From IMG/VR virus record IMGVR_UViG_3300012931_000017, positions 33,415-97,414 of that record: a stretch of DNA of 64,000 bases; one strand, written 5' to 3'. Under the pieces are notes generated by a model. That model did not search any database, was not told where the DNA came from, and saw only the letters and a program-made list of their open reading frames with translations. The stretch comes from a virus. Both the position numbers and the translations under genes were made by a program. Positions 34,633 through 58,510 of the stretch are shown piece by piece; positions within the stretch are counted from its first letter, which is position 1, and every line of letters begins with the position of its first letter.

Positions 34633-34641
34633 TGATTTTTA

Positions 34642-34675: not shown

Positions 34676-34697
34676 AAACATTTATGAAAGGATCATT

Positions 34698-35396: not shown

Positions 35397-36730
35397 TGAT
35401 TGATATAAATGAATACTTTAAAAAGGTTAATTATTATATAGCAACCTCCGATGAAATGATCGGAATTGATGCTAATTATGATTATTTGAACGATAATTTT
35501 TCTCACGAAAATAAACAAGAACGAGTTAACGTAACCTATTATGATTTGATTGATGACAAATATATGGATGGAGTTTTAACATCCAAAGCATTAGTTACTG
35601 GTAGACAAGTAGAAACTTATACTTCATTAGGAGGACTAAGGAAATACTTTAATATTCCAAAAAGTTATTATTTGATGGGTGATTGTGGAGCACCTACATA
35701 CTTTAACGAAGATAATCCACCATTTACGATTAGTGATCTTTTAGATTTTTATGAAAATCTTGATTTAGATTTTGGTATAACATTAGATCATATTGTTGAT
35801 ATGGTTGATATGACTAACAGAATTAAACCAACAAAAACTCATATTTATCGAAGAGAACTTTCTTGTAAAAATGCAATTGAAATGCTAAAATTAGTTAAAG
35901 AAAGAAAATCGAAAATATATTTATTAGGTTCTGTACAAGGTTGGAGTCCCGAATCTTATAAGCAATCATTAATTGAGTTAGGTGAAGCAGGATTTAAATA
36001 TTGTGCTATTGGTGGATTAACTATGACAGGTAATACTGATATAGTATCACAAATTCTTAGTTATTTAACACCAACAGCTAAGAAATATGGAATTAAATTA
36101 CATTTACTTGGGTTTGGTAGATTAGCTCTATTATCATCATTTTTAAAATATGATATATTGAGTTCTATTGATAATTCTACACCATTATTAAATGCCAGTA
36201 ATGCACCAACATCGGCTTATTTCTTTAATTTAAAAAATAAGTTTTATAAATATGACACTATTTATCTTCCAATTTTTAGTAAAGGAGCTCCTTCCTTGAA
36301 TAAGAAGATAAAGAATCTTTATGAAAATGATTATAGTGATATTATTGTTGAGTTAGATGAATTTTCCCATAATATAGTTAAACAATTAAGAGAATTTGAT
36401 GAATTAGAAAACTCAAAAGAAATAAAAAATAAAGAATTATTTAATTCAATATTAAGAAATATACAAAAGTTTGAGTTAATGCATCGTAAATATTCTGGAA
36501 CTAATCATGATGGAATGAATACTTATTTAAACGAAATTAAATTAGTATTAAATAGCAAATGTTGGAAAAACTGTAGTTGTCCTCTTTGTAAAACTTATGG
36601 TATTAATATGGTTACTTTTAGATCTCAAATGAGAAATAAATTGAGAGGTATTCATAATTTAAAACATTATTACGATTATTTTTGTTGTGAGTTAAATAAA
36701 AATAATAAAATGAACAAATTTTTACTTTAG
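35396..36730 (+). CDS. dpdA: tRNA-guanine-transglycosylase-family protein, probable DNA 7-deazaguanine transglycosylase DpdA
   Basis: 'LGSVQGW...CAIGGLTM' (TGT 'GIVQGG...AIGGLSVGE'), 'LHLLGFG...DSSTP', zinc site 'CSCPLC'. Lies inside the queCDE/folE cluster, as dpdA does in phage 7-deazaguanine systems. Confidence 0.7.
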   Translation: MIDINEYFKKVNYYIATSDEMIGIDANYDYLNDNFSHENKQERVNVTYYDLIDDKYMDGVLTSKALVTGRQVETYTSLGGLRKYFNIPKSYYLMGDCGAPTYFNEDNPPFTISDLLDFYENLDLDFGITLDHIVDMVDMTNRIKPTKTHIYRRELSCKNAIEMLKLVKERKSKIYLLGSVQGWSPESYKQSLIELGEAGFKYCAIGGLTMTGNTDIVSQILSYLTPTAKKYGIKLHLLGFGRLALLSSFLKYDILSSIDNSTPLLNASNAPTSAYFFNLKNKFYKYDTIYLPIFSKGAPSLNKKIKNLYENDYSDIIVELDEFSHNIVKQLREFDELENSKEIKNKELFNSILRNIQKFELMHRKYSGTNHDGMNTYLNEIKLVLNSKCWKNCSCPLCKTYGINMVTFRSQMRNKLRGIHNLKHYYDYFCCELNKNNKMNKFLL

Positions 36731-36739
36731 ATTGATTTT

Positions 36740-36958
36740 ATGGATGAAATGAATAATATAACAAAACAGATTAATGATAATGTTATTGGAGAACTCTATA
36801 ATAGATATACTATAATATTAAATGAACACCTTCCAGAAAAAACTTTGTGTGTTAGTTCAGATATTTTTAACACTTTTAAAAAAGATAAAAAGTTTGAGGA
36901 AAATATAACTAAAATGAAAAGAATTATAGAAGAAATGGACGATGATAAAAATGTATAA
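36740..36958 (+). CDS. hypothetical small protein (72 aa)
   Basis: ORF track. Confidence 0.2.
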   Translation: MDEMNNITKQINDNVIGELYNRYTIILNEHLPEKTLCVSSDIFNTFKKDKKFEENITKMKRIIEEMDDDKNV

Positions 36959-37382
36959 TCATATTTCTGTAGATTTTGATGGAACTCTATTTGTTAATGG
37001 TGAAATTGATAAAGAACTTGTTGATAAACTTAATAAACAATATAATGGTAAGGTTTTTATATTTACCAGTCGGAGTTGGGGAGATTATTTTTTAATTAAG
37101 AATCTTATAACTGAAGCTAAATTAAAGTTTGAAGGAATAGTTTGTGGTAAGTTAATTGCAGGTAAATATCTTGATGATAGAAATATTAGTATTGATGAGT
37201 TTAAAGATTCATCCAATAAAATATCTAATAACAATGAAGAAATATCACGAAATTATCTTATTTGCTTCACTTGTCATTTAGCAAAAACATCTCCGTATGA
37301 TGATGGTAAATTTTGTGCATTTATTATAGATAAACACGATTGGTCTGAACTACCACCTAATTGCCCAAGAAGTAGGTGGTAG
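36942..37382 (+). CDS. HAD-superfamily phosphatase-like protein with a C-terminal Cys/His cluster
   Basis: 'ISVDFDGTLF' DxDGT motif I, 'IFTSR' motif II-like; C-terminal 'CFTCH...CAF...CPRS'. Confidence 0.45.
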   Translation: MIKMYNHISVDFDGTLFVNGEIDKELVDKLNKQYNGKVFIFTSRSWGDYFLIKNLITEAKLKFEGIVCGKLIAGKYLDDRNISIDEFKDSSNKISNNNEEISRNYLICFTCHLAKTSPYDDGKFCAFIIDKHDWSELPPNCPRSRW

Positions 37383-37400
37383 AAGAAAGTAGATAACTAA

Positions 37401-37595
37401 ATGAATAATGAAACTAAACTTAAAAGACTGAATGATAAAATGGATATTCTAAGAAGACAAATATCTGATTTAGAATATACTATTAAACAAGAAAAACAAG
37501 CTAAATGTACTAATCATGATTTTGAATATTTCTGTAGTTCTCATAATGATAGTGTTTATAGATGCATTAAATGTGGTTTAATGGAGGAAAGATGA
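37401..37595 (+). CDS. hypothetical small zinc-ribbon protein (64 aa)
   Basis: 'CTNHDFEYFCSSH...CIKCG'. Confidence 0.2.
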   Translation: MNNETKLKRLNDKMDILRRQISDLEYTIKQEKQAKCTNHDFEYFCSSHNDSVYRCIKCGLMEER

Positions 37596-38449
37596 GCTAT
37601 TCAACTATTACATTCACTCGTGGTGATAAAGATTTAATTCCTACATTTATAACTATATCAATGCAAGATTATAAACCAAAAGAAAGTATTTTGGTAATTG
37701 ATAGTAGATGGATACATGGCAACTATACTTTATATCATCAAATATCATTGATTGAAAATATTTTAGTTCCATTAAATATTAAATTTTCTGTTTATATTAG
37801 TGGAAAATTACATAATAATTTTGCTAAGGTAAAGAATTTTGGTTATTCAAAAGTAGAAACCTCTCATGTATTATATGTTGAAGATGATTGTTTAATTCCT
37901 GCAAACTATGCAAACAATTTGTTTTGTTTGATGATAAGAAATTATTATTATGGTTCATCGGGTGGTATTCAATTACTTATAGAAGATTCTGATGATATTC
38001 AAGAAAAACCAATTTTTGATAAAATTGAATTACCAGAAGAAAAATATTACCAAAGACTCAAAGTCGAAAATGGTAAACTAGAATATGATTCTATTAAACA
38101 TCAATGCTACCTATATAAACATAGTTCATCGGAAAAAGGTAGAACAATACCATGTCATGCATTATTGCATACTTATATGTTAAATATGGAGGTTTTACGA
38201 GAGGTTGGAATGTGGGATGAGAATGCTCCTGAACATGGATCACTAATCTTTGAAGAAATGGATGTAATGTTTAGAATGCACTTAAAAGGATATATAAACT
38301 GGATTCATACAGATTTGATTATGTATCATTATAGGAAATCAAATAGAAGAACTGAAAATGATAAAATATCCCAAAGAGAAGCTTTAAGAGAAGAAAGAAA
38401 ATTATATTTTGGTCAGAAATACATTAGAGAGGGTTTAATAAATGGGTAA
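37571..38449 (+). CDS. hypothetical protein (292 aa) inside the deazaguanine cluster; possible glycosyltransferase or oxygenase fold
   Basis: 'YVEDDCLIP' DxD-like; no firm assignment. Confidence 0.3.
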   Translation: MWFNGGKMSYSTITFTRGDKDLIPTFITISMQDYKPKESILVIDSRWIHGNYTLYHQISLIENILVPLNIKFSVYISGKLHNNFAKVKNFGYSKVETSHVLYVEDDCLIPANYANNLFCLMIRNYYYGSSGGIQLLIEDSDDIQEKPIFDKIELPEEKYYQRLKVENGKLEYDSIKHQCYLYKHSSSEKGRTIPCHALLHTYMLNMEVLREVGMWDENAPEHGSLIFEEMDVMFRMHLKGYINWIHTDLIMYHYRKSNRRTENDKISQREALREERKLYFGQKYIREGLING

Positions 38450-39008
38450 TGAAATATACGAATATAAAAATAATGAAGATTTTAGTGTAACAACTAAAAC
38501 TAGAATTCATGAATTTCTTGGAATTATGAATAAAATTATAAAATTTAAATCTGGATTACATACAATAGCTGATGTTTGTTGTGGAAATAAGTTTATTGGT
38601 AATGCTATACAATCTTATGTACCAACTAGGACTTGTGATTTTTATGATTATTATCCTATTGATTCCACTATATCTAAAATTGATTTGAATTTTAAAGTTG
38701 AATCTAAGATAAAATATGATTTGGTTATATTTAGTCATTCTTTAGAACATTTTGAAGATTCAGGAATGGTTTTAAATTCATTAAAAACTTTTCTTAATGC
38801 TTCTGGACAATTGATTATTGTAGTTCCTAATTGTGAATATAATATAAAAGCTAGAGATCCTAATCTTGGTCATTTTAAATTTTTTGATTTTAATAGCTTA
38901 AAAGAAGAAGTTAATAAAGTTTTTACCATTGATTTTATTGCTGAAAATAATCAAGATGTTGGTTTTGAAGAACTTTGGATAGTTTGTTCTAATAAATTGA
39001 AAAGGTAA
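38442..39008 (+). CDS. class I SAM-dependent methyltransferase
   Basis: Motif I 'IADVCCGNKFIG'; 'DLVIFSHSLEHFED'. Confidence 0.55.
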   Translation: MGNEIYEYKNNEDFSVTTKTRIHEFLGIMNKIIKFKSGLHTIADVCCGNKFIGNAIQSYVPTRTCDFYDYYPIDSTISKIDLNFKVESKIKYDLVIFSHSLEHFEDSGMVLNSLKTFLNASGQLIIVVPNCEYNIKARDPNLGHFKFFDFNSLKEEVNKVFTIDFIAENNQDVGFEELWIVCSNKLKR

Positions 39009-39012
39009 GTTT

Positions 39013-39903
39013 ATGAATACTCAAAAGGAAGTTAAATATTCTGATTTAGTGAAAAATAAATTTCCTGAATTATTTGCACCTTATATAGATGGAGTTTCAT
39101 TTGAAATGAATAAGCATATTTTGATTTTATATTCTGGTGGATTAGACTCAAAAATATTAGAACGTTATGCACAAGTAACTAATCCAAATGCAAAAATAAC
39201 TAAAGTTTGGTTTGATATTGGACAAGAATATAATGAAAAAGAACGCGCTTGTCTTGATTCATCTGTTGAAATTAGAAAAATAGACTATCTTAGAGATGTG
39301 AAAGGAGTTTCTAAAGATGGTAATGTTTGTGGTTCTATTATGATTCCTGGTCGAAATGCTGTATTAGCTATGTTAGGAGCTTCAATATATCTTCCTGATG
39401 AAATTTGGATGGGTGCTGTAAAAGGCGAAGATAACTCTGGAGCTACTGATAAAAATAGAGAATTTGTTAGATTGTTTAATGATTGTATTGGTTATGTACT
39501 TTCACCTTACAAAAAAGTAACTCTTAGATTTCCTTTTGTTGAAACTTTTAAAGGAAAATCAGAAATTGTTTCATGGGCTTTACGTAATGGATTAAGTAAG
39601 GAAGAATTGATGGCTACTTCATCTTGTTTATCGGGTGAAGCTGGTAATTGTGGAACCTGTATTGTTTGTGTTAGAAGGTGGGGTATTTTTTATAGTTTGG
39701 GTTTTGAAGAGAAGTATAATAATAACTTATTTTCTGATAAGAATGCTATAGATTATTTGATTAATGTATTAATTGATGATGGTTCTCATTATGATGAATA
39801 TAGAAAAAGAGAGGTAATTCCTGCACTAAAAAAGAAATTTAATGTTAATAATGAAGATGAATTACTTAAAATTTTAAATGATTTAAAAGAGAGGTGTAAA
39901 TGA
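39013..39903 (+). CDS. queC: 7-cyano-7-deazaguanine synthase QueC (PP-loop ATPase)
   Basis: PP-loop 'LYSGGLDS'; C-terminal zinc cluster 'CLSGEAGNCGTCIVC'. Confidence 0.8.
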   Translation: MNTQKEVKYSDLVKNKFPELFAPYIDGVSFEMNKHILILYSGGLDSKILERYAQVTNPNAKITKVWFDIGQEYNEKERACLDSSVEIRKIDYLRDVKGVSKDGNVCGSIMIPGRNAVLAMLGASIYLPDEIWMGAVKGEDNSGATDKNREFVRLFNDCIGYVLSPYKKVTLRFPFVETFKGKSEIVSWALRNGLSKEELMATSSCLSGEAGNCGTCIVCVRRWGIFYSLGFEEKYNNNLFSDKNAIDYLINVLIDDGSHYDEYRKREVIPALKKKFNVNNEDELLKILNDLKERCK

Positions 39904-47478: not shown

Positions 47479-48768
47479 ATGAACAATAATCTAAAGAATG
47501 GTTTATTTATGAACAATAATGAAGCATGTGTAGTTACTCTTAAAAATATATCTTCTATTGAAGGTGCTGACAAAATTAAACAAGCTGATGTATATCTTAA
47601 AGATATAAAACTTACTCAGGTTGTTGTTGGTGTAGAAACTAAAGAAGATACTAAAGTAGTTTATTTTGATTCTAATATTTGTATTAATGAATGTTTGACT
47701 CAAGATTTTCCAGATCTTGCAAAATATTTGGGTAAACATAATCGAGTTAAAACTATTAAACTTAAAGGCATTATTTCTAATGGTCTTTGTGTAGATTTAG
47801 ATAAATTTTACAAATACTTTAAAAATGAAAAAGAAGCTAAGTCCACTTTGGTTGAAGGTTATTCTTTCTCAAAAATTAGAGAACAAGATATTTGCAAAAA
47901 ATATATTGTTATGGTTAATGAACCTTCAAAATCTAAAAAGACTAAAGGTAAAGGTAAAATTAGTTCGCGAATGATTCCGGGTATATTTGCCTTTCATTGT
48001 GATACAAATCAGCTTCTTAGAAATATTCATAAGATAAATCCTGATGATATAATCTCAATTTCGGCAAAATTTCATGGCTCCAGCTCGATTGTATCTAATT
48101 GTTTGGTAAAAAAGAAACTTAACTTTAAAGAAAGAATTGCTAAGAAACTTGGAGTTAAAGTAGTTGAAACTGAATATGATTATATTTACGCTTCAAGAAG
48201 AGTTATTAAAAATAAGGAATTCCCAAATTCTAAGTCTTTTTATTCCGAAGATATTTGGGCTAAGTCTGGTAGAGAAAACTTTGAAGGTAAACTTAATAAA
48301 GGTGAAACAGTTTATTATGAAATTGTAGGTTTTCTAGAAAATGGAAAATATATTCAGAAACAATATGATTATGGTTGTACTTCACCAAATTATAAGATTG
48401 TAGTTTATAGAATTACATCAACTAATATTGATGGTGTAGTAACTGAATATAGTTGGTCCTCTATGAAAGAAAGATGTAAAGAACTTAATGTTCCAATGGT
48501 AAAAGAATATTACTACGGGAAAGCTAAAGATCTTTATCCTAATATTTCAATAGAAAATCATTGGCAAATTAATTTTGTTGAACAACTCAAAAAAGATTTT
48601 CTTGAGAAGAAGAGTGCTGATTGTATTAATGACGTTCCTGATGAAGGTATTGTTATTAGAAGAGAGTCTATTTCTATTGATGTTTATAAGTTGAAATCTG
48701 AACTTTTTATTCTAAGAGAATCTAAGTTGAAAGATGATGAAGTTGAAGATATTGAAGATTTGAACTAA
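47479..48768 (+). CDS. RNA ligase (Rnl2-like nucleotidyltransferase)
   Basis: Motif I 'SAKFHGSS' (T4 Rnl2 'KIHGTN'), 'VYYEIVGF', motif IV-like 'EGIVIRRE'. Confidence 0.55.
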   Translation: MNNNLKNGLFMNNNEACVVTLKNISSIEGADKIKQADVYLKDIKLTQVVVGVETKEDTKVVYFDSNICINECLTQDFPDLAKYLGKHNRVKTIKLKGIISNGLCVDLDKFYKYFKNEKEAKSTLVEGYSFSKIREQDICKKYIVMVNEPSKSKKTKGKGKISSRMIPGIFAFHCDTNQLLRNIHKINPDDIISISAKFHGSSSIVSNCLVKKKLNFKERIAKKLGVKVVETEYDYIYASRRVIKNKEFPNSKSFYSEDIWAKSGRENFEGKLNKGETVYYEIVGFLENGKYIQKQYDYGCTSPNYKIVVYRITSTNIDGVVTEYSWSSMKERCKELNVPMVKEYYYGKAKDLYPNISIENHWQINFVEQLKKDFLEKKSADCINDVPDEGIVIRRESISIDVYKLKSELFILRESKLKDDEVEDIEDLN

Positions 48769-48866: not shown

Positions 48867-49289
48867 ATGGGCGAAAGATTTTTTTATGCACAAGATGTTT
48901 TTGATATTTTAACACGTAATATTCATGATGGTTTTTATTCATCTATTTTTAAGTCGGATTATAAACCAGATTATCCTTATGATCTTTATAAACAAGATAA
49001 TGACATTTATATTGAACTTCCTGTAATTGGAATCAATAAAGATGATATTAAAATTAAGGTTGAAAAGGATGTTTTGAGGATTTCCTGTAATAAAGATAAT
49101 GAAAAGATCACTAATCGTGATTATTATGTAAAAAGGATAACTAGAAAAAACTTTGATATTCCTTTTAAAATTGATGGCGATTTTGATATTAATTCAATAG
49201 ATGCAACTGTAGATAAAGGTTTACTAAGAATTAAAATACCTGCTTCTATTGAGTCTAAATCAAATTATTTCGATGTAAAAATAAAATAG
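48867..49289 (+). CDS. small heat-shock protein (Hsp20/alpha-crystallin)
   Basis: 'LPVIGINKDDIKIKVEKDVLRISC...GLLRIKIP' ACD pattern; RBS AAAGGAGG. Confidence 0.65.
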   Translation: MGERFFYAQDVFDILTRNIHDGFYSSIFKSDYKPDYPYDLYKQDNDIYIELPVIGINKDDIKIKVEKDVLRISCNKDNEKITNRDYYVKRITRKNFDIPFKIDGDFDINSIDATVDKGLLRIKIPASIESKSNYFDVKIK

Positions 49290-49345: not shown

Positions 49346-49443
49346 TACAAAATCTTTGCTCGTGTCGAATAATGATTAGTTCAACTGATTTTCAGTCAGT
49401 TAATTGGAGTTTGATTCTCCACACGAGTATTTTTAATTTATTT

Positions 49444-49527
49444 GGGTGATTCGCATAGTGGTCAAGTGCTCCTGACTGTAGATCAGGCGGCGAAAGCCTT
49501 TCGGTGGTTCAAATCCATCATCACCCA
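49444..49527 (+). tRNA. tRNA-Tyr (GTA), class II with long variable arm
   Basis: Hand-folded. Acceptor GGGTGAT/ATCACCC, D-stem GCAT/GTGC, anticodon stem CCTGA/TCAGG with loop CTGTAGA, 15-nt variable arm, T-arm GGTGG-TTCAAAT-CCATC. Confidence 0.8.
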
Positions 49528-49539
49528 TTTTTATTTTAA

Positions 49540-49603
49540 TGACTTGTATTTCAATTGGTAGAACCCAGAGATGTAGTTGTAGGTTCAAATCCTTCCAAGT
49601 CAG
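49540..49603 (+). pseudogene. degenerate tRNA-like element (64 nt): acceptor, D-arm and T-arm present, anticodon arm truncated
   Basis: Acceptor TGACTTG/CAAGTCA, D-arm TTTC-AATTGGTA-GAAC, T-arm GTAGG-TTCAAAT-CCTTC, but only about 13 nt where the anticodon arm plus variable region (about 22 nt) should be. Confidence 0.45.
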
Positions 49604-49612
49604 TTTTCTTAT

Positions 49613-49685
49613 TGCAGGGTTGAGAAAGGGATTCTCACAAGCCTCATAAGCTTGGATATGAAGTTTCAAATCCTTCCTCTGCAAG
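49613..49685 (+). tRNA. tRNA-Met/fMet/Ile2 (CAT)
   Basis: Acceptor TGCAGGG/CTCTGCA, D-arm GAGA-AAGGGAT-TCTC, anticodon arm CAAGC-CTCATAA-GCTTG, T-arm GAAGT-TTCAAAT-CCTTC (one mismatch). Confidence 0.7.
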
Positions 49686-49771: not shown

Positions 49772-50368
49772 ATGTATCATATTATTTTGAATGAGTCGAG
49801 TCAAGCTTTATCTAATTCTCTTACTTGGGTTGATAGATTATCCGAAGATGTAAAAATCTTTGTTAGAGGTAAAGGACATTCGGCAGAATCTTTCAAAGAT
49901 AAAATTATAAACTGTGGATTCAAAACTAAATTGAAAGTTATAAATGTTCATCCTTATTTTAAAAATAAAAGATTTTCGATTGAAGATTTCGTTTATATTT
50001 TATCCTCAAATGAAGTAATTTACCAATTTGAAAAAAATAACAAAAAATATTCGGTTAATTTAGAATCTGATAGATATAAGAATTTTATGACTAATGGATT
50101 TTCTTGTAAATATTGTGGTTTTCAAGGAACTCATTTTTGGGCAGAATCTAATGTTCTAAATGATAGTAAGCTTCATTTTAATCTTTATGGATTAACAAAA
50201 AATAATAACGAAATGATGTTGACCAAAGATCATATTATTCCTAAATCTGCTGGTGGTTTGGATGTAGTTGAAAATTTTCAAGTTCTTTGTGAACATTGTA
50301 ATAGTAGCAAAGGTTCTATGATTCCTCTTGACAAACACCTTTCCAACAATTATATTAATAATAATTAA
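49772..50368 (+). CDS. HNH homing endonuclease
   Basis: 'CKYCGFQG...HIIPKSAGGLDVVENFQVLCEHCNSSKG' HNH motif. The C-terminal 12 codons read through the second repeat copy. Confidence 0.75.
   Translation: MYHIILNESSQALSNSLTWVDRLSEDVKIFVRGKGHSAESFKDKIINCGFKTKLKVINVHPYFKNKRFSIEDFVYILSSNEVIYQFEKNNKKYSVNLESDRYKNFMTNGFSCKYCGFQGTHFWAESNVLNDSKLHFNLYGLTKNNNEMMLTKDHIIPKSAGGLDVVENFQVLCEHCNSSKGSMIPLDKHLSNNYINNN
50323..50357 (+). repeat. 35-bp direct repeat, copy 2
   Basis: See 49700..49734. Confidence 0.9.
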
Positions 50369-50381
50369 AGAAAGAAAAGAT

Positions 50382-51242
50382 ATGCTTCAAACTAAAGATG
50401 AACAAATAATAAAATCTGGAATTGGTATAATTGTTGGTAGATTTCAGGTTTCTAGTTTACATCCTGGTCATGTAGATCTTATAGATTCGGTAAGATTTAG
50501 ACATAATAAAGTTATTATAGTTTTAGGATCTTCTCCTCTGAAAGCAACCAAAAATAATCCGTTAGACTACACTTCAAGAAAATCAATGATAAATGAGAAA
50601 TATCCTGATATTTTAGTTTTGAATATCAAAGATAATGAATCTGATATAATTTGGTCTAAAAATTTAGATGAACTAATTACAGACTTCATTCCTCCTGAAT
50701 GTAATGTAGTAATTTATGGAAGTAGAGACTGTTTTGCTAAATTTTATTTTGGTAAGTTTCCTGTTAAAGAGTTAATTCCTGAACAGATTAATTCAGGTAC
50801 AGAACTAAGAATAAAAGATTCCTTCAACACTAAAGATTCAGAAGATTTTCGCTGTGGAGTTATATGGACTACACAAAATCAATCAATTACTAATAATGTC
50901 AAAATTTTAGCTATTATTAAAAAAGATGATTGCATATTGACATTTAATGATGATAATCGTAGTTTTATTAACTGCGATTTAGATTTTACCATAAGTTCTA
51001 ATATTTTTGAAAATTCAATAAAAGCTTTTGCAATAAGACATAATATTAATGTTGGTGAAATAACTTATTCAACTACTATTATTAATGATGATTGGATGCT
51101 TAGAAAAGAACCTAATAAAAATATATTGGTAGTTTTTACTTGTAAATATCTTGATGGAAATATTGATAAAGAACTTAATTGGACTACTATAGATGAATTA
51201 AACGATTGTAATAAACTCTTTTTGAAAGGTTATTTAAAATGA
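50382..51242 (+). CDS. natV: nicotinamide-nucleotide adenylyltransferase-like (NatV-type) with a C-terminal Nudix-like domain
   Basis: 'IGIIVGRFQVSSLHPGH' (H/T)xGH nucleotidyltransferase motif. I placed the start at the ATG at 50382 (after the repeat). It sits upstream of nadV, as in KVP40-type phages. Confidence 0.55.
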   Translation: MLQTKDEQIIKSGIGIIVGRFQVSSLHPGHVDLIDSVRFRHNKVIIVLGSSPLKATKNNPLDYTSRKSMINEKYPDILVLNIKDNESDIIWSKNLDELITDFIPPECNVVIYGSRDCFAKFYFGKFPVKELIPEQINSGTELRIKDSFNTKDSEDFRCGVIWTTQNQSITNNVKILAIIKKDDCILTFNDDNRSFINCDLDFTISSNIFENSIKAFAIRHNINVGEITYSTTIINDDWMLRKEPNKNILVVFTCKYLDGNIDKELNWTTIDELNDCNKLFLKGYLK

Positions 51243-52624
51243 ATAACATTGTTGGATTAACTGATAGTTATAAGATTGGTCATCATAACATGTATCCAGA
51301 AGGAACTCAAAAAGTGTATTCTTATTTTGAAGCTAGAAATGGTGCAAAATATGATGAAACTACATTTTTTGGATTGCAATATTTACTTAAAAAATATTTT
51401 TGTGGTAAAGTTGTAACTAAAGAGAAGATTGATGAAATTGAAGAATTTTCTAAATTTCATTTTAATAATGATCAAATCTTTAAAAGAGAACGTTGGGATT
51501 ATATTCTCAATGAACATGATGGTTATTTACCATTAAAAATTAAAGCAATTCCTGAAGGTTTATCTATTCCAATTAATAATGTTATGATGACGGTAGAAAA
51601 TACAGATAATAAGTGTCATTGGTTGACTAATCATTGTGAAACTATTCTAACCCATGTTTGGTACGGAAGTAATGTCGCAACTATTAGTAGATTTACCAAA
51701 AAATTGTTTATAGAATATCTTGAAAGAACTAGTGATTTTGGTAAAGATTTCCCTGGTTTAAATTTTATGTTGCATGATTTTGGATTTAGAGGGGTTAGTA
51801 GTTCTGAAAGTGCTGCGATGGGAGGTTCTGGTCATTTGATTAATTTTTATGGAACCGATACAATTATTGCTCCATTTATGATTAAAAATTATTATAATAA
51901 TGGTAAATTTCCAAATGCGTTTTCTGTTCCGGCTACAGAACATTCTATTATGACTTCATTAGGTAAAAATGGAGAAATTGAAGTTATTAAAAACTTAATT
52001 GAAAAATATAATACTGGAATTTTATCTGTAGTTTCTGATAGTTATGATATTTTTAATTGTGTTGAGAATATCTATGGAAAAGAACTAAAAGATTCTATTC
52101 TCAATAGAAATGGTAAATTTGTTGTAAGACCTGATAGTGGTGATCCTGTCAAAACCATCGAAACATTACTTAATATTTTATGGAATAAGTTTGGTGGAAC
52201 AATTAATACCAAAGGTTATAAAGTTCTAAATCCTAAAGTTGGTTTGATTTGGGGTGATGGAATTAACTATGATGGAATATCTTCAGTTTTACACAATATG
52301 GAATTGAATAAATTCTCTGTTGAAAATATAGTTTTTGGTATGGGCGGAGGATTATTGCAAAAACATAATAGAGACACTCAAAGATTTGCATTCAAGTCTT
52401 CTAGTCAGTTTAGAAATAATGTCTGGCAAGATATTTTCAAAGATCCTATTGATTCTACCAAAGTTTCTAAAAAAGGTAGACTAAAATTGATTAAAGAAAA
52501 TAATCAATTTAAAACGGTTCATATTGATGATTCTGGTGATGATATTATGAATGTAGTCTTTGAAAATGGTATTATAAAAAATGAAATTGATTGGTCGTCT
52601 ATTGTTAATAATTCGGCTATTTAA
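51239..52624 (+). CDS. nadV: nicotinamide phosphoribosyltransferase (NAMPT/NadV)
   Basis: 'LTDSYKIGHH', 'GFRGVSS', 'GTDT', 'GDGI' blocks of the NAMPT family; 461 aa. Confidence 0.85.
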   Translation: MNNIVGLTDSYKIGHHNMYPEGTQKVYSYFEARNGAKYDETTFFGLQYLLKKYFCGKVVTKEKIDEIEEFSKFHFNNDQIFKRERWDYILNEHDGYLPLKIKAIPEGLSIPINNVMMTVENTDNKCHWLTNHCETILTHVWYGSNVATISRFTKKLFIEYLERTSDFGKDFPGLNFMLHDFGFRGVSSSESAAMGGSGHLINFYGTDTIIAPFMIKNYYNNGKFPNAFSVPATEHSIMTSLGKNGEIEVIKNLIEKYNTGILSVVSDSYDIFNCVENIYGKELKDSILNRNGKFVVRPDSGDPVKTIETLLNILWNKFGGTINTKGYKVLNPKVGLIWGDGINYDGISSVLHNMELNKFSVENIVFGMGGGLLQKHNRDTQRFAFKSSSQFRNNVWQDIFKDPIDSTKVSKKGRLKLIKENNQFKTVHIDDSGDDIMNVVFENGIIKNEIDWSSIVNNSAI

Positions 52625-53011: not shown

Positions 53012-53359
53012 ATGCTAATAGAAAGGTTTAAATTAAAAATGTCTGATAATAAAATATATTGCAAGAATTGTAAATATTACAAGTTTATTAAATCTGAAAC
53101 TATTGTATCACCCAATTTTGTTGATCCTACTCCTCCAACAAATATACCAACCTGTGTTGGTGATTACCATTATTATTGGGGTTCATCTATGTGCACTCAT
53201 GATATTTGTTTTGTAAAAATAACAGAAGAAAAACCAGAAAAATCATACGTACACGTAGAAAGAATAAATGGTCAAGGCCAACTTAATTGGAATAATTCTT
53301 GCAAATTATATAAACCTAATTGGTTTACTATTTTAAAAGATTGGTTTAATAAACTATGA
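53012..53359 (+). CDS. hypothetical Cys-rich protein (115 aa)
   Basis: 'CKNCKYY...CVGD...CTHDIC'. Confidence 0.3.
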   Translation: MLIERFKLKMSDNKIYCKNCKYYKFIKSETIVSPNFVDPTPPTNIPTCVGDYHYYWGSSMCTHDICFVKITEEKPEKSYVHVERINGQGQLNWNNSCKLYKPNWFTILKDWFNKL

Positions 53360-54315
53360 TTTACACTAATTTATTGGCTGAAAAAAGATTTGAATCTCAC
53401 GAACAATGGATTAAAGATAACTTGCTATTTGAAGCTATTATGGGTTCTAATGCTTATGGTTGTAATACGGCAGAATCTGATATTGATATAGTTGCTATAG
53501 TTATGCCGAAAGATGAAGTAATAAATCCTCAAAAATATGGTTATATTAGTGGATTTGAAACAGTTCCTAATTTTGAATCTAAAGAAGTAAAAGGTGAAGG
53601 AAAAAAACTAGTTCTTGATAATGGAAAAGATATTGAAGGTGAATTTGTTAGTTTAATTAGATTTTTCTTTTTAGCGGGAATTAAAGGTTCTCCAAATTTG
53701 ATAGAAACTCTTTTTGTTCGAGATAATTTAATCACTTTTAATTCTAAAATTGGCGGAATGTTAAGAGATAATAGAAAAAAGTTTCTTAGTCTCAGGACAT
53801 TTAATTCTATGAAGGGTTATACTTGGAATCAAATAGAAAGAATTAGACGTGGAGTTTTATCAGGGAAAACTGATAATTCAAAAAGGCAAGCTATGTTTGA
53901 TAAAACGGGATTTGATTGCAAAATGGCTGGCCATTGCCTTAGATTATTGGATAATCTAAACCAACTACTTGATTATGGAAACATAGATCTTATGAATAAT
54001 AAAGAAGAAGTAAAAAACATGAGAAATGGAACCTGGGGAGATTTTAATAAATTTGTAACTATAACTACTGAAAGATTAGAAGCTATAGAAAGAAAAGCCT
54101 TAACTCAAAATGCTTTAAGTATATCACCACAAAGTGGATCATTAAAGATTCTTCTTCGAGATTGCATTGAAGAATTTTATGGTAGTGATAGCAATGCACA
54201 AAAGTTTCAGACTGAATATGTTTCTGCTAAAATGGTTTATGAAAAATTGGATGAAATTAGCTCTTTGCTTGGTAAAACTCAAACCTTTATCAATTTAAAC
54301 TCAAGAAGAGGCTAA
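53356..54315 (+). CDS. Pol-beta-superfamily nucleotidyltransferase (cGAS/DncV-like or PAP/OAS-like) with a helical C-terminal domain
   Basis: 'AIMGSNAYGCNTAESDIDIVAIV' GS-x10-DxD motif; about 200-aa helical domain downstream. Confidence 0.5.
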   Translation: MIYTNLLAEKRFESHEQWIKDNLLFEAIMGSNAYGCNTAESDIDIVAIVMPKDEVINPQKYGYISGFETVPNFESKEVKGEGKKLVLDNGKDIEGEFVSLIRFFFLAGIKGSPNLIETLFVRDNLITFNSKIGGMLRDNRKKFLSLRTFNSMKGYTWNQIERIRRGVLSGKTDNSKRQAMFDKTGFDCKMAGHCLRLLDNLNQLLDYGNIDLMNNKEEVKNMRNGTWGDFNKFVTITTERLEAIERKALTQNALSISPQSGSLKILLRDCIEEFYGSDSNAQKFQTEYVSAKMVYEKLDEISSLLGKTQTFINLNSRRG

Positions 54316-54387
54316 AATTTTAGAACTAATTTGATTTTGATAAATAATTAGATGGTTTAGAATTAAAAACTTAATAAGGTTGTACAA

Positions 54388-54642
54388 ATGCAACTAATAA
54401 CAAGTGCTGGTTCATTTTCTTTAAATAAGTTTATGAAATGTCAAGTTGCAAAAATAGTTAAAGATGAAGATGATTCTGATGATTATTCCGATGATTTTGT
54501 ATTCAATTGGATAAACAAAAATAGTTCAGAGTTTAGACAAAAATGGAATAAATCATTATGCAAATCTTGTAAATATAGTGATGAGTGTGGTTGGTCAGTA
54601 GTACAAAATTGTATCAAATATAAAGAAGAGGAATTTCTTTGA
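54388..54642 (+). CDS. hypothetical small Cys-rich protein (84 aa)
   Basis: 'CKSCKYSDECGW'. Confidence 0.25.
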   Translation: MQLITSAGSFSLNKFMKCQVAKIVKDEDDSDDYSDDFVFNWINKNSSEFRQKWNKSLCKSCKYSDECGWSVVQNCIKYKEEEFL

Positions 54643-55550
54643 AACGAGTTATAATTCATTCTGGAGGTGGAGTTAAAGGTTATTTAACTCTTCAAACTCT
54701 TGTAAAAATAGAAGCGATGAATGGTCCATTATATAGATATTATGATTTAGGTGTAGCTAGTTCTGTGGGAGCTATTATTTTGGCAATATTAGCAACTGGA
54801 AAACTTTCAGCTAAACAACTTAATGAAATATTTCCCGAAATGATAACAAAGATCTTTAAAAAGGTTCCTTTCTATAAAACCTTATTTATTAAACCAATAT
54901 ATGATAGACAAAACTTTATTGATGTTTGGAATAGTTTAATCGGTAAAGATTTTAAAATGAAAGATTGTAAGTTTAAATTAATAATTTCTGCTGTTAATTT
55001 AATGACTCAAAGAAATCATTTCTTTAAGTCTTGGGAAGATAAAGATGGTGAAGAGAACTTATTAGATGTAGTTCTAAGATCATTTGCTGCTCCTTTGTAC
55101 TTTGGAAAATTAATTGATGTAAAAAATAATGCTATTTGGTTAGATGGAGGTGTTGGAAACTCGAATCTTCCTTTAGATACTGCATCTATAGAAGCTATAG
55201 ATCTTTTAAAATGGCATGATTTTTATCTTCAATTTGATGCTTTTGGATGTGGATTTTCTAATAATGATATTTCTTTCAAAGAAGCCTCAAAGTTTCAAAA
55301 TTTAAAGCAAATTTTAAGTTATCTTGATTTTAATGATGGTGGATTGGCTAGAGCCCAGTCTAGACATGAACAAGTTATGAAAATGAAAATAAAAGCCGAA
55401 AATAATAATTATATTGGTTTTGATTATTATGATATTGAAATTCCTACAAAAATTAATAAATTAGATGGTGTAAAATTTCTAGAAGATTATAAGCATTATG
55501 GTGAGTTAATGTTTAACCAACCATTAATTAGAATTAAACCAAGAAAGTAA
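54639..55550 (+). CDS. patatin-like phospholipase
   Basis: Oxyanion 'HSGGGVKGY', nucleophile 'GVASSVGA' (AxSxG), catalytic 'DGG' in 'WLDGGVGN'. Confidence 0.75.
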   Translation: MKRVIIHSGGGVKGYLTLQTLVKIEAMNGPLYRYYDLGVASSVGAIILAILATGKLSAKQLNEIFPEMITKIFKKVPFYKTLFIKPIYDRQNFIDVWNSLIGKDFKMKDCKFKLIISAVNLMTQRNHFFKSWEDKDGEENLLDVVLRSFAAPLYFGKLIDVKNNAIWLDGGVGNSNLPLDTASIEAIDLLKWHDFYLQFDAFGCGFSNNDISFKEASKFQNLKQILSYLDFNDGGLARAQSRHEQVMKMKIKAENNNYIGFDYYDIEIPTKINKLDGVKFLEDYKHYGELMFNQPLIRIKPRK

Positions 55551-55558: not shown

Positions 55559-55900
55559 ATGTTAATAAATAGAGTTGTAAAAATTAGAGATGTTAAAAGT
55601 ATAAAATGTAAATTTCCTGGTTGTGATAAAACAATTGAAACAAATGGTTATGCTGCTAAATTCTGCAAAGAACATAAAAAAGTTAAATACAGAGAAATTA
55701 AAGAAAAGGTAGTTGATAATAATAATCAAGTAATAGAACATAATTATAAAATAACTACAAAAATGATGATTAAATGCCAATTAGAAGGTTGTAATAATGA
55801 GTTTGAAATAACTATCTCTCCAAGAACCTTTATCTTTCCAAAATTCTGCGAAAATCATAGATCCGAATATAAAAGAAAAATGTTTAATAAAAATTGTTGA
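55559..55900 (+). CDS. tandem zinc-ribbon protein (113 aa)
   Basis: Two repeats of C-x4-C-x13-C-x2-H ('CKFPGCDK...FCKEH', 'CQLEGCNN...FCENH'). Confidence 0.3.
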   Translation: MLINRVVKIRDVKSIKCKFPGCDKTIETNGYAAKFCKEHKKVKYREIKEKVVDNNNQVIEHNYKITTKMMIKCQLEGCNNEFEITISPRTFIFPKFCENHRSEYKRKMFNKNC

Positions 55901-55972: not shown

Positions 55973-58510
55973 ATGGCTGATGTTAGAGAAAATGATTTGG
56001 TTTTAGCTCAGAATGAATACGCTTTTGTTAGGAATACCAATGATGGAACTATTATAACCCATGTTGGCCCTACCAAAGCTACTCTTACTGGAACAGATCA
56101 ACCAATGAAGTTTGATGAAAAGACTTCACAATTTGTATGTTGTTCAACTAAAGAATGCATAAAACAAATGATTTATGCTGATGAGCGTTCTTATGTAGTT
56201 CTTCAAAATCCTTATTATAAGAATATTGGAGATCAATTAACAGTTTCATTTCCGGCAGGAAATACTTCCAATACACCCGTTAAATTGGAACAAGGTAAAT
56301 CAATTAATATTCAAGGCCCATGTTCATTTCCTTTGTGGCCTGGTCAGGTTGCTAAAACTATTCCTGGTCATCAATTAAGAACAAACCAGTACCTTTTGGT
56401 TCAAGTAGTTAATGCTGAAGAAGCAAAAAAGAATTGGGAAAAATCAACAATTGAAACTGTTGAAACAAAGAAGAATGAAGCAAAGAGTAAAACACAAACA
56501 GAATTTAAGTTTGTTACTGGTAGATTGAATATTATTAGAGGAAACGAAATTTCTTTTTATATTCCACCAACTGGAGTTGAAGTTGTTTATGATCATGAAT
56601 CAAATTCATATCAAAGAGATGCTTTAACTCTCGAAACTCTATTTTATTGTATTTTGAAAGATGAATCGGGTGATAAAGAATATGTAAAAGGCCCTGCTGT
56701 GGTGTTTCCAAAACCAACACAAACTTTTGTAACTACAGGTAAATCTTCAGAAAATAAGAAATTTAAGTCTTTAGAGCTTAACAAAGACATGGGTGTTTAT
56801 ATTAAAGTTATCTGTTCTTATGAAGATCCAAATGGTCATGAGTTTGTTAATGTTGAAGGAAAGAAAGTTGTTGGATATGAAGCAGGAGAAGAGTTATTCA
56901 TAACTGGCGAACAACAAAAGATTTATTTTCCAAGACCCGAACATGCTATTATTAAGTATGATAATCAGGTTATACATTATGCTATTGTTATTCCTGAAGG
57001 TGAAGCCCGTTATGTTCTTAATAGAACTACAGGAACCATTGATACAATTAAAGGCCCTATAATGTATCTTCCTGATCCTAGATTCACAACTATTGTTAAA
57101 AGAGTTCTTGATACTAAAACAGCGGAACTTTGGTTTCCGGGAAATACTGAAGTTCGTGATCATAATTTAGCCGCAGCTAATGAGAATAAAAATGAATTGG
57201 GGTTTATTGAAACAGATCGTTCAGCAAAAGCAACTAGAAATTCTGTTGCTGGAGATTATTCAATGTCTACACTTAAATTCTTTGATTCTCCAAATGGTGG
57301 TTTAGAAGATTTTGCTCTTCTTCAAGATGCAATGTCAAGAAAATCAACATTTACACCTCCAAGATCTATTAAGATTAATACCAAATATGATGGTGCGGTA
57401 TTAATTAATGTGTGGCCTGGTTATGCTATTCAATTAGTTTCTCGTTCTGGTCAAAGATCTGTTATTTGTGGTCCAAAAGCTGTAATACTTGATTATAATC
57501 AGACTTTAGAAGTTCTTACTATTTCTGCGGGAAATCCTAAAGGAAGTAAAGCTCCTGTTCAAACTACTTATTTGAATATCAAAAATAATAAAGTAAGTGA
57601 TATAATTGATGCGGAAACTAAAGATCTAGTTCCTGTAAAATTATCCGTTTCTTATAAGGTTAATTTTGAAGATAAAGATTGTGATAAATGGTTTAACATT
57701 CAAGACTATACTAAATTCCTTACTGAGCATTTGAGAAGTGTAATTAGAAATTCAGTTAAGAAATTTGGAATTGAAGAGTTTTATGCTAAATCTATTGATA
57801 TTATTCGCGACACTATTCTTGGTGAAAAAGTAAAAGATAAAGAAAGAACTGGTAAATATTTCTCTGAAAATGGAATGAGAGTTTATGATATTGAAATTTT
57901 GAATGTTTCAATTAATAATCCAGAAATTTCTAAACTTCTTATTAATGCTCAACACCATGCGGTTGAATGTACTTTAACAGTAACTCGTGAAGAAGCTGAT
58001 CTATTTGTAGTTAAACGTCTTGAAACTGTTAAACAGAATAAATTGGATATTATTGAGCAAACCAAAGATAAAATGTTAGCTATTGAACTTAAGAATTTCG
58101 AGAATTCAAAAACTGTCGAAAAAATTAAAGCAGAAATAGAAGAATCGAAGGTTGAGTTTAAAGATAAACTTGCTCAAATAGAGTTTGAAAGAAATAAATT
58201 ACAAGATTCTCAAGAAATATTTAAGATCGGTGAGAAAACTAAAATTGCTACTGAAGCACATGAAAAGAGAATGGCTGCTATTAGTGAAAAATTGATTGCG
58301 GCTATTAATAATCTTGGTGATAAACAGTTGGCTATGGCGTTTGCTGAAAATCTTCCTAAAGCAACTGGAACTAATGGTTATCTATTTGGTACTGGTGGTA
58401 ATGAAGGTTTGCTAAAATTAATTACTGGTAATGAGTTGCTTGAAAGTAAAATCAAACAACATGTTGGTAAAACTATTACCCGTGATGGTGAAGGTCTTAT
58501 CAACGAATAA
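55973..58510 (+). CDS. major vault protein (MVP) homologue, full length (845 aa)
   Basis: The N-terminal repeats match MVP repeat 1-2: 'NEYAFVRNTNDGTIITHVGPTKATLTGTDQPMKF' against human '[33 protein letters not shown]', and 'FPLWPGQV' against 'FPLYPGEV'. More repeats follow ('EELFITGEQQKIYFPRPE' against 'EWLFEGPGTYIPRKE'), then a shoulder-like region and a 130-aa coiled coil (cap-helix) in the same order and at the same length as the 861-893-aa eukaryotic MVP. Confidence 0.65.
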   Translation: MADVRENDLVLAQNEYAFVRNTNDGTIITHVGPTKATLTGTDQPMKFDEKTSQFVCCSTKECIKQMIYADERSYVVLQNPYYKNIGDQLTVSFPAGNTSNTPVKLEQGKSINIQGPCSFPLWPGQVAKTIPGHQLRTNQYLLVQVVNAEEAKKNWEKSTIETVETKKNEAKSKTQTEFKFVTGRLNIIRGNEISFYIPPTGVEVVYDHESNSYQRDALTLETLFYCILKDESGDKEYVKGPAVVFPKPTQTFVTTGKSSENKKFKSLELNKDMGVYIKVICSYEDPNGHEFVNVEGKKVVGYEAGEELFITGEQQKIYFPRPEHAIIKYDNQVIHYAIVIPEGEARYVLNRTTGTIDTIKGPIMYLPDPRFTTIVKRVLDTKTAELWFPGNTEVRDHNLAAANENKNELGFIETDRSAKATRNSVAGDYSMSTLKFFDSPNGGLEDFALLQDAMSRKSTFTPPRSIKINTKYDGAVLINVWPGYAIQLVSRSGQRSVICGPKAVILDYNQTLEVLTISAGNPKGSKAPVQTTYLNIKNNKVSDIIDAETKDLVPVKLSVSYKVNFEDKDCDKWFNIQDYTKFLTEHLRSVIRNSVKKFGIEEFYAKSIDIIRDTILGEKVKDKERTGKYFSENGMRVYDIEILNVSINNPEISKLLINAQHHAVECTLTVTREEADLFVVKRLETVKQNKLDIIEQTKDKMLAIELKNFENSKTVEKIKAEIEESKVEFKDKLAQIEFERNKLQDSQEIFKIGEKTKIATEAHEKRMAAISEKLIAAINNLGDKQLAMAFAENLPKATGTNGYLFGTGGNEGLLKLITGNELLESKIKQHVGKTITRDGEGLINE

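Follow-up and report, generated by a model that had tools for sequence, protein, structure and literature searches.

An RlaP-family nucleotidyltransferase and a CapV-like patatin lipase as probably separate functions of a T4-like phage accessory island

Several described systems are close to the pair of genes analyzed here. RlaP nucleotidyltransferases act on RNA: PfRlaP and PaRlaP add one or two NMP to 3'-OH ends, need a free 3'-OH, are inactive on DNA and protein, and RlaP is needed to restore damaged tRNA (PMC12776372). RlaP and RNA ligases are also co-distributed in jumbo phages (PMC7824862). Another system is the type II CBASS operon with the gene order capV-dncV-cap2, e.g., on Acinetobacter pittii pApiA45Pc, in which the start of the DncV-like CD-NTase gene overlaps the stop of capV and is followed by the E2/UBC gene cap2. 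The patatin-type lipase AbCapV binds 3'3'-cGAMP through the essential contacts F147, K149, D159, E207, and R279; without R279, neither cGAMP binding nor the formation of filaments is possible, and the R279A exchange abolishes activity (PMC12480259).

Here, we analyzed a stretch of 64,000 nucleotides of viral DNA (the window) in which a nucleotidyltransferase (NTase) gene and a patatin gene lie close together on the same strand. The window has a GC content of ~26% and was initially annotated as T4-like, which is borne out by its core replication and recombination genes (UvsW, gp46/47, gp43, UvsX, gp41, gp32, gp61, RNase H, and gp44/62). The three ORFs of the initial annotation are all found in the ORF listing, at 53356-54315, 54388-54642, and 54639-55550. 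The features that matter for the following are:

47479..48768, + strand: putative RNA ligase, PHA02142 OB domain plus RNA_ligase domain, both sub-threshold
53012..53359, + strand: Cys-rich ORF, 115 aa, no family matches
53356..54315, + strand: RlaP-family (PF10127) NTase, 319 aa, ATG start
54388..54642, + strand: small Cys-rich protein, 84 aa, 5 Cys, no Pfam family
54639..55550, + strand: CapV-like patatin acyl hydrolase/phospholipase, 303 aa, TTG start
55559..55900, + strand: zinc-finger-like protein, 113 aa, two C-x4-C...C-x-H units
59708..60421, + strand: Thg1-like 3'-5' nucleotidyltransferase (tRNA 5'-end repair), Pfam Thg1

The stop of the 115-aa ORF and the start of the NTase gene share 4 nt, and no terminator-like sites were seen on the + strand between 52500 and 56100; a sigma-70 promoter scan is uninformative at the 26% GC of this sequence. 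The 115-aa Cys-rich ORF has no match in Pfam, PADLOC, PHROGs, or NCBIfam and no homolog in any fetched related locus. In a megablast search of 50,697 deposited phages, the 8.6-kb region had no match. This part of the window probably belongs to an accessory island of a T4-like phage, with two separate functions that are probably co-transcribed. Our main reading, to which we assign a probability of roughly 70%, is that these are two independent accessory functions, namely RNA repair by RlaP and a membrane lipase of the CapV lineage that would operate without CapV-style control by cGAMP.

On the evidence of its sequence, the NTase is an RlaP-family RNA 3'-end nucleotidyltransferase and belongs to the same family as T4 NrdC.11. 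The Pol-beta NTase signature (G-S, D-x-D, and a third carboxylate) is complete: the GS-x10-DIDI motif pointed out in the initial annotation is present as G30-S31-x10-D42-I-D44-I, and G30, S31, D42, D44, and E117 are invariant in an alignment of 26 sequences. The long helical C-domain noticed at the same time is seen in an AF2 model (pLDDT 89.6) as an all-helical C-terminal half that follows an N-terminal alpha/beta NTase core. It has 71 homologs, 65 of which carry PF10127. On rescan, 25 of the 26 aligned relatives, which are 45-60% identical, matched Pfam RlaP (best 3e-23), and the window NTase itself scored just under the cutoff of 23 (19.2 bits, E 1e-3). Its match to phrog_388 has an E value of 3e-37. 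Profile-profile alignment (hhalign) with T4 NrdC.11 extends over both domains (231 columns, probability 98%, E 1.4e-13), and NrdC.11 in turn scores 46.6 bits against the RlaP model. Homologs occur in 358 deposited phages, where they are annotated as nucleotidyltransferase or NrdC-like; no RlaP entry was found among PDB sequences by either the profile search with the NTase family or the single-sequence search.

The window NTase shares with PfRlaP/PaRlaP and T4 NrdC.11 the Pol-beta core with GS...DxD, the third carboxylate, and the helical C-terminal domain. It is carried by a large phage, here with a putative RNA ligase and Thg1 in the same window. It differs in falling into a distinct metagenomic subclade, which has a C-terminal helical extension of ~50 residues with a conserved TEYVS motif that is absent from distant RlaP members, and in which the nearest constant neighbour is the patatin and not an RNA ligase. 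By analogy with the characterized RlaP enzymes, the NTase is predicted to add one or two nucleotides onto RNA 3'-OH ends. It would be a routine component of the phage RNA-repair toolkit.

The initial annotation had proposed that NTase and patatin form a minimal CBASS module of the DncV/CapV type. This reading fails because the NTase is an RlaP and not a CD-NTase. No PADLOC CD-NTase model matched it, and hhalign of the NTase family against bona fide DncV detected no similarity (probability 0.2%, E 0.3). Nor does its predicted structure point to the bilobed, cGAS-like CD-NTase fold with a spine helix: the fold neighbours are HalB, LinB, and ANT, while cGAS, CdnC, and CdnE appeared at noise level only. 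Hailong HalB (PDB 9DBH) and the minimal NTases KNTase, ANT, and LinB are 8-15% identical to the NTase, with TM scores of at most 0.47 and no family-level sequence match, and the likeness is one of general class and not of common function. Sequence-model searches found no cyclase among the other ORFs of the window. The same was true of the surroundings of patatin relatives at all loci examined, where neither a CD-NTase nor Cap2 ever adjoined a phage patatin. As in type II CBASS, a CapV-type lipase is encoded near an NTase gene on the same strand; unlike in a CBASS operon, the NTase is an RlaP, is encoded upstream of the lipase, and lies at a variable distance from it. Every patatin context examined was phage backbone and not a bacterial or archaeal defence system. 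The idea of CBASS in a lytic phage can be dropped.

A different fate befell the alternative offered in the initial annotation, i.e., a template-independent RNA or tRNA nucleotidyltransferase that works with an RNA ligase and a Thg1-like enzyme. It is supported and fits both what is published on RlaP biochemistry (PMC12776372) and the occurrence of RlaP in large phages (PMC7824862). The partners of the NTase would be the RNA ligase of the phage at 47479 and the Thg1-like enzyme at 59708. The latter had been recognized correctly (Pfam Thg1 1.4e-33, Thg1C 5.9e-7). The call of an RNA ligase at 47479 also holds, on weak matches to RNA_ligase (7.4e-5) and to the PHA02142 OB domain (2.7e-3) that are both under Pfam thresholds; the same two-domain architecture recurs near the patatin/RlaP pair of another locus (L005). 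This ligase is likely an RNA-repair partner of the NTase. It is located 4.6 kb upstream of the NTase gene, Thg1 is located 5.4 kb downstream, and the vicinity includes five tRNA genes. Among ten NTase loci of the close clade, an RNA ligase was present within 10 kb in none and Thg1 in three. A ligase was nearby in 6 of 40 distant RlaP loci, and several related loci have Thg1 within 10 kb of the block.

The patatin carries the three signatures that had been attributed to it, as G9-G-G-V-K-G14, A40-S-S42-V-G44, and D169-G-G; at the first position of the nucleophile elbow, which is A-S-S-V-G in the window, most relatives have G. Single-sequence search returned 90 homologs and a profile search at least 223, counted as cluster representatives, and the N-termini of homologs agree with the TTG start. 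Given their many metagenomic homologs and invariant catalytic residues, NTase and patatin are not chance ORFs. The patatin scores 47.5 bits (E 3e-12) against Pfam Patatin (PF01734; cutoff 27.7) and matches the PADLOC CBASS phospholipase models at 1.4e-30 and 4e-28. Its best NCBIfam match is CBASS_lipase NF041079, at 91.9 bits far under the cutoff of 200. CapV from the PDB was found by the patatin profile at 1e-32, Foldseek aligned the patatin to AbCapV (8zr9) with an E value of 9e-22 and a TM score of 0.78, and hhalign with ApCapV gave a probability of 99.7%. The likeness to a CBASS effector seen in the initial annotation is real, as CapV-type lipases account for all of the best matches in sequence and structure. 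With respect to context and ligand site, however, the patatin is an orphan without a cyclase and lacks one essential cGAMP-binding arginine.

Like CapV (AbCapV, PDB 8ZR9/9JEH; NF041079), the phage patatin is a single-domain protein of similar size, and the two align collinearly as far as the C-terminus with 23-26% identity; it is ~60 residues shorter and has a reduced lid region (W98/L101). Plant patatin Pat17 (PDB 1OXW/4PK9) has the same fold (TM 0.75-0.77) and the same dyad at 17% identity. The catalytic machinery of the family is intact: K13 (K or R in 21 of 25 members), S42, and D169 (each 25/25) correspond to R21, S58, and D192 of AbCapV, and the equivalents of the CapV acyl-pocket residues P175, F178, and V262 are kept. 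As the family retains its Ser-Asp dyad and oxyanion loop and an acyl pocket whose hydrophobic core is preserved, we predict that the enzyme is active, most likely as a phospholipase A or acyl hydrolase on host membrane lipids. Its clade would be a phage-borne offshoot of the lineage that also gave rise to the CBASS effector CapV, and its most likely role, we infer, would be membrane disruption or remodelling during infection, e.g., as an aid to lysis or in lipid scavenging.

Four of the five cGAMP contacts of AbCapV are found in the patatin, with F128 (22 F and 3 Y among 25 relatives), K130 (25/25), D136 (20 D, 2 E), and E185 (19 E, 4 Q) in the places of F147, K149, D159, and E207. The full set is not present: R279 corresponds to A253, a position occupied by 13 A, 10 S, and 2 C among the 25 relatives with no conserved basic residue nearby, although this mapping is less certain than that of the other contacts owing to low identity in that region of the alignment. 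The autoinhibitory E300-R21 lock and the filament interface are also missing, with K in place of E300 in 19 of 25 and in place of N299 in 15 of 25 members, L, V, T, or I in place of Y251, and the E304 column deleted in all 25. CapV-type activation of the patatin by 3'3'-cGAMP is improbable because the R279 contact, the E300-R21 lock, and the filament-interface residues are lost and a cyclase partner is lacking.

The retention of four out of five contacts makes a nucleotide site of altered specificity possible. The conserved FFKSW motif was considered as evidence of cGAMP gating, and its weight is tempered by the plant control, in which the motif reads IFTK and the position of D159 is also acidic. 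Pat17 has no known nucleotide regulation and, like the phage patatin, no equivalent of R279; its residue in place of E207 is V, and FFK is replaced by IFTK, so that the phage family is nearer to CapV in both respects. As the plant patatin covers the rest, only the equivalents of K149 and E207 are specific to CapV and the phage family.

This ligand site, together with the close kinship to CBASS lipases in sequence and structure, could be taken to mean that the orphan lipase senses or intercepts cyclic dinucleotides of the host CBASS, either as a counter-defence decoy that would compete with the CapV filaments of the host or poison them, or by hijacking the host alarm for faster lysis. Such a role would suit a family that is almost wholly phage-borne and that resides, in the window and on related contigs, in islands with counter-defence functions (NAD salvage, RNA repair, PTH2), and it would make use of the retained equivalents of F147, K149, D159, and E207. 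However, A, S, or C replaces R279 in 25 of 25 members, conservation does not extend to N299, E300, E304, and Y251 of the interface, and the invariant catalytic dyad speaks against a pure sponge. We regard interception of host signals as unlikely and favour a lipase that is controlled by other means, more likely by the timing of its expression or by the two Cys/Zn proteins encoded on either side of it, of which one would be translationally coupled.

The genomic linkage of the two genes could be seen as an argument against independent functions. Within its own clade, the NTase has the patatin as its most frequent neighbour (in 6 of 10 unbiased loci anchored on the NTase and, at a distance of 11-12 kb, in two more), and the gap between both genes is ~300-850 nt in at least ten loci. 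The window's other neighbours, NAMPT, NMNAT, and an MVP-like gene, are not conserved in loci of the NTase clade. Proximity of RlaP and patatin in varied order is also seen on divergent jumbo-phage contigs, namely L005 (437 kb), where the genes are adjacent and reversed, L013, L015, and the P0073 contig. Outside the clade, one of ~40 distant RlaP phage loci has a patatin within 10 kb, a patatin of this family is absent from all 358 GenBank phages with RlaP, and at least 12 divergent patatin loci have no RlaP within 10 kb. The pairing is a feature of one phage clade, in which the two genes are 0.3 to 12 kb apart and unrelated genes are inserted; each gene is also found alone, which departs from the strict adjacency of synthase and effector in a CBASS operon. 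T4 nrdC.10, which adjoins nrdC.11, was considered as a hidden patatin (hhalign probability 0.14%) and instead encodes an AAA/STAND-like ATPase.

One could nevertheless imagine a CBASS-like pair with a non-canonical synthase, in which a nucleotide or short-oligonucleotide signal made by the RlaP-type NTase gates the CapV-like lipase as a lysis timer or superinfection-exclusion weapon. The clade-specific proximity, often ~0.3-0.8 kb, the reversed adjacency in L005, and the four retained cGAMP contacts are compatible with such a pair, as is the presence among the nearest folds of HalB, a defence NTase that makes an oligodeoxyadenylate signal. We deem a signalling pair very unlikely. Even less probable, to a degree that verges on the negligible, is a patatin-fold esterase within RNA repair, which would strip acyl, aminoacyl, or peptidyl groups off tRNA 3' ends and so prepare them for RlaP, which requires a free 3'-OH, and for the ligase. 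The patatin does repeatedly occur near RlaP, RNA ligase (L005, L103), PTH2 (P0073 contig), and Thg1. Yet the residues of the hydrophobic acyl-chain pocket of CapV are kept, fold and length fit lipid hydrolases, and many patatin loci have no RNA-repair gene nearby. We know of no patatin that acts on RNA esters.

The patatin family is almost entirely phage-borne. Across 185,579 species genomes, it was detected on four MAG contigs only, at least two of which carry the same phage flanking genes, and Chitinivibrio alkaliphilus (P0209) is the one isolate genome with a member; the genome and metagenome scans used a narrower alignment (A3) and therefore sample chiefly the core clade. With tblastn against deposited phages, the patatin retrieved only Wolbachia WO patatins at ~26% identity, and we found no description of a phage CapV-like lipase family in the searchable literature. 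The nearest relatives of this family are the commonest suicide effector of CBASS, and the occurrence in phages of effector homologs that are catalytically intact but have neither a synthase nor the full set of key ligand contacts, one of which is lost, poses a testable question: are they enzymes for lysis or lipid scavenging that are descended from or ancestral to CapV, or do they serve as counter-defence against cyclic-nucleotide immunity? Either answer bears on the exchange between defence effectors and viral genes.

The patatin is bracketed by two small proteins for which Pfam, PHROGs, NCBIfam, and PADLOC gave no assignment. Between NTase and patatin, the 84-aa Cys-rich ORF of the initial annotation is real and ends in a C-x2-C-x5-C-x8-C motif; its TGA stop overlaps the TTG start of the patatin (TTGA). 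It is encoded directly upstream of the patatin throughout the core clade, a position kept in ~30 loci, and may, we infer, regulate the lipase or act as its partner. The 113-aa protein, encoded 8 nt downstream of the patatin, is the most constant downstream neighbour of the latter, including in the distant member L178, and has a weak match to Zf_WRKY19 and no significant Pfam family. It is tempting to combine these proteins with the ligand site into a model of CapV-derived phage lipases whose rewired cyclic-dinucleotide pocket is gated by a host CBASS signal or by the product of an RlaP-type NTase, with the Cys/Zn mini-proteins as inhibitor or adaptor. This model is unlikely; if true, the lipase would be a virus-encoded nucleotide-gated membrane weapon, or a counter-defence, built of defence-system parts.

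The 84-aa ORF, patatin, and zinc-finger gene do not form an obligate cassette. ORF clustering shows that other genes, absent from the window, are nearly as frequent nearby, and at one locus (L019) the patatin is exchanged. Because of this arrangement and the clustering result, we advance a cassette only tentatively, although two conserved mini-proteins that bracket the lipase and, in one locus, a different hydrolase may define a small regulatory unit. Locus L019 retains the NTase gene along with the two small genes, and an amidohydrolase of the Amidohydro_2 family occupies the slot of the patatin.

The initial annotation proposed that a nucleotidyltransferase (NTase) and a patatin-like phospholipase form a minimal CBASS module in a T4-like phage or, alternatively, that the NTase belongs to a tRNA-repair kit. 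The ORF listing places the two genes, and the small ORF between them, exactly where that annotation had put them:

53356-54315, + strand, NTase, 319 aa
54388-54642, + strand, small Cys-rich ORF, 84 aa
54639-55550, + strand, patatin, 303 aa, TTG start

The proposed active-site signature of the NTase (G30-S31-x10-D42-I-D44-I) and the three signatures of the patatin (G9GGVKG14, A40-S-S42-V-G44, and D169GG) are readable in the translations. The genes are tightly packed: the NTase start is overlapped by a 115-aa ORF on its upstream side, the TGA of the small ORF overlaps the TTG of the patatin (TTGA), and 8 nt separate the patatin end from the start of a 113-aa Zn-finger ORF; no terminator-like site was found on the + strand between 52.5 and 56.1 kb of the window. 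The window, with about 26% GC, is indeed from a T4-like phage and encodes UvsW, gp46/47, gp43, UvsX, gp41, gp32, gp61, RNase H, and gp44/62. It also encodes a putative RNA ligase, Thg1, and five tRNAs, i.e., a cluster for Glu, Tyr, and Met (49357-49685), followed by an HNH endonuclease gene (49772-50368), and single genes for Gln and Gly at 62516 and 63231. A small heat-shock protein of the Hsp20 family is encoded at 48867-49289. No close relative of the window was found among deposited phages.

The NTase is an RlaP (PF10127) and not a CD-NTase; within the RlaP family it is a new but ordinary member. Its own Pfam RlaP match is below threshold (19.2 bits vs a cutoff of 23); PF10127 is carried by 65 of the 71 homologs from a single-sequence search, and a Pfam rescan recovered RlaP in 25 of 26 aligned relatives. 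Catalytic residues are invariant across the aligned homologs. The family profile matched T4 NrdC.11, itself an RlaP (PMC12776372; also recovered here), with 98% probability over both domains, and the PHROGs match was phrog_388 'nucleotidyltransferase' (3e-37). Homologs occur in 358 deposited phages, mycobacteriophages, Bacillus phages, and jumbo phages among them. The CD-NTase assignment failed by HMM, with no match to PADLOC CD-NTase models and an hhalign probability of 0.2% to a genuine DncV from a capV-dncV-cap2 operon. It also failed by structure prediction: fold neighbours of the confident AF2 model (pLDDT 89.6) were 3c18, HalB, LinB, KNTase/ANT, and MNT/HEPN proteins, with cGAS, CdnC, and CdnE at noise level only. 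No cyclase-like protein was found among the other window ORFs. In two relatives the RlaP gene is interrupted by mobile elements: one encodes a 756-aa protein in which a LAGLIDADG domain probably marks an intein (contig L013, 4858-7125), and the other matches in two pieces about 0.7 kb apart (contig L030, 9980-11853).

The patatin, in turn, is CapV-like but an orphan. Single-sequence search found 90 homologs, whose alignment shows invariant catalytic residues, and profile search at least 223; CBASS lipases were the top matches in every library searched. PADLOC effector models matched at 1.4e-30, and NCBIfam CBASS_lipase scored 91.9 bits, well under its equivalog cutoff of 200. AbCapV was recovered by PDB sequence search (2e-16; 1e-32 with the family profile) and by Foldseek with the AF2 model (pLDDT 89.5; E 9e-22, TM 0.78, 24-25% identity), followed by other CBASS lipases and CapE, and then plant patatin (17% identity); hhalign with Acinetobacter pittii CapV gave 99.7% probability. 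The lipase is a new, phage-restricted form of CapV-like enzyme. Searches of the literature turned up no account of such a family, and the phage patatins they returned were only putative auxiliary genes or from Wolbachia WO.

We mapped CapV residues on an alignment of 25 phage-family patatins with CapVs recovered in full length from four annotated CBASS operons, and with plant Pat17 as a control without nucleotide gating; AbCapV numbering was validated on ApCapV (87% identity), which has the same residue at 14 of 17 marker positions when offset by +10. Equivalents of R21, S58, and D192 are kept (K/R in 21/25, S in 25/25, and D in 25/25), and the acyl-pocket core positions P175, F178, L195, and V262 are still hydrophobic. 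Mutation of any of five cGAMP contacts of AbCapV, F147, K149, D159, E207, and R279, abolishes activity (PMC12480259). Conserved equivalents of the first four exist in the phage family, those of K149 and E207 being absent from plant patatin, and it is conceivable, though unlikely, that the lipase senses or intercepts cyclic dinucleotides of the host. All 25 phage patatins, however, have A, S, or C at the R279 position, E300, which locks R21 in the inactive state of CapV, is K in 19 of 25, and the filament-interface activation residues Y251, N299, and E304 are non-conserved or deleted. Because catalytic and acyl-pocket residues are kept while these are not, canonical cGAMP gating looks lost or rewired; catalysis is under selection. 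As a phage-encoded orphan that retains part of the ligand pocket, this CapV-like lipase makes a good lead for experiments.

Nearly all members of the patatin family are carried by phages. When 185,579 species were scanned, with one genome for each, four MAG contigs were returned, at least two with the same phage flanking genes. All readable contexts are phage backbone, and no cyclase was found in them; one further member lies in an isolate genome. Across 76 de-duplicated patatin loci, the neighbours that stay constant are the small Cys-rich ORF, immediately upstream of the patatin, and the Zn-finger ORF, immediately downstream, the latter kept even in a distant member (L178); no Pfam family was found for either. 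In a 138-kb related phage contig (L019, 15329-17180) these mini-genes bracket a 363-aa Amidohydro_2 enzyme in place of a patatin, and some 4.4 kb upstream there is an RlaP NTase; the position between the mini-genes may be a site where hydrolase cargo is exchanged. In seven loci (L026, L025, L022, L008, L115, L121, and L145), the best match to the Zn-finger profile is some 1.3 kb downstream of the patatin, beside or replacing the adjacent copy, which suggests a second, paralogous gene.

At least 10 loci have an RlaP gene 0.3-0.85 kb upstream of the patatin, arranged as in the window; others have it at 1.4-9 kb, and in two contigs the distance is 11-12 kb. In the CBASS operons used for comparison, by contrast, capV, dncV, and cap2 overlap by codons. 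Most of the divergent patatins have no RlaP nearby, the exceptions being L005 (adjacent, reversed order), L013, L015, and the contig of P0073. ORF clustering of 26 well-flanked loci ranked NTase (11), Zn-finger (10), and small ORF (8) highest, with two genes not in the window also reaching 8. Several divergent phage contigs carry an AAA_5 (MoxR/CobS-like) ATPase and a DUF2201 (VWA-associated) protein directly upstream of the patatin (e.g., L003 6416-9500 and L103 2035-4504); their ORF clusters take in 6-7 of the 26 loci, and both genes are absent from the window. In an NTase-anchored sample, unbiased with respect to patatin, 6 of 10 close-clade RlaP loci had a patatin within 10 kb, vs 1 of 40 distant ones. 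We read this linkage as a neighbourhood conserved in one phage lineage plus a shared accessory island, not as an obligate synthase-effector pair. With an RlaP, no cyclase found in the window or in the contexts read, and a non-obligate linkage, the minimal CBASS proposal is refuted; that an RlaP-made signal gates the lipase, which the close-clade proximity might invite, is improbable.

Two independent functions, RNA repair and lipase, are the most likely explanation (probability roughly 0.7). Characterised RlaP extends the 3'-OH end of RNA by one or two NMPs, with a preference for damaged tRNA, and over-trimmed tRNA depends on it to regain aminoacylation (PMC12776372); across jumbo phages, its distribution tracks RNA ligases (PMC7824862). 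By homology, the window NTase would act on RNA and, with the phage RNA ligase and Thg1 as partners, repair tRNA 3' ends that host anticodon nucleases have cut and trimmed. An RNA ligase was near the NTase in 0 of 10 close-clade vs 6 of 40 distant loci. That the lipase is an esterase working on acylated tRNA ends within such repair is the least probable alternative. Under two independent functions, the patatin would be an active acyl hydrolase on host membrane lipids, controlled by expression timing or the bracketing mini-proteins and not by cGAMP, and might serve membrane disruption or lipid turnover.

Further genes of the window, all on the + strand, are:

27775-32585, intein-split NrdD (anaerobic ribonucleotide reductase) and homing endonuclease
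32954-39903, 7-deazaguanine (queuosine-precursor) gene set, with genes at
32954, radical-SAM protein
34698, GTP cyclohydrolase I
35396, TGT/DpdA-like protein
38442, methyltransferase
39013, QueC-like protein
50328-52624, NMN adenylyltransferase-like gene (304 aa) and, right after it, NAMPT (461 aa)
55973-58510, Major Vault Protein (MVP) homolog, 845 aa

The MVP homolog, unusual for a T4-like phage, is full-length relative to the eukaryotic protein (MVP_shoulder 7.8e-28, Vault_3, and Band_7/SPFH in Pfam; PDB MVP 4hl8, E 4.8e-12, residues 480-772). Homologs in deposited phages were confined to three uncultured 'huge phage' genomes (LR756500/1/3, 462-735 kb), matching at 41% identity across 97% of the length, and its position beside the patatin is not conserved in related loci. 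The NMN adenylyltransferase-like gene and NAMPT (NAPRTase 1.7e-48 and NAMPT_N) form a phage NAD+ salvage pair of the type believed to work against NAD-depleting defences; in related patatin contigs, NAPRTase and NAD synthase are nearby instead. The 7-deazaguanine set suggests modified guanine in the phage DNA. Intein_splicing matches lie at the end of 27775-29253 and the start of 30487-31512, flanking an unannotated 394-aa ORF, and a GIY-YIG SegE-like homing endonuclease follows NrdD at 31617.
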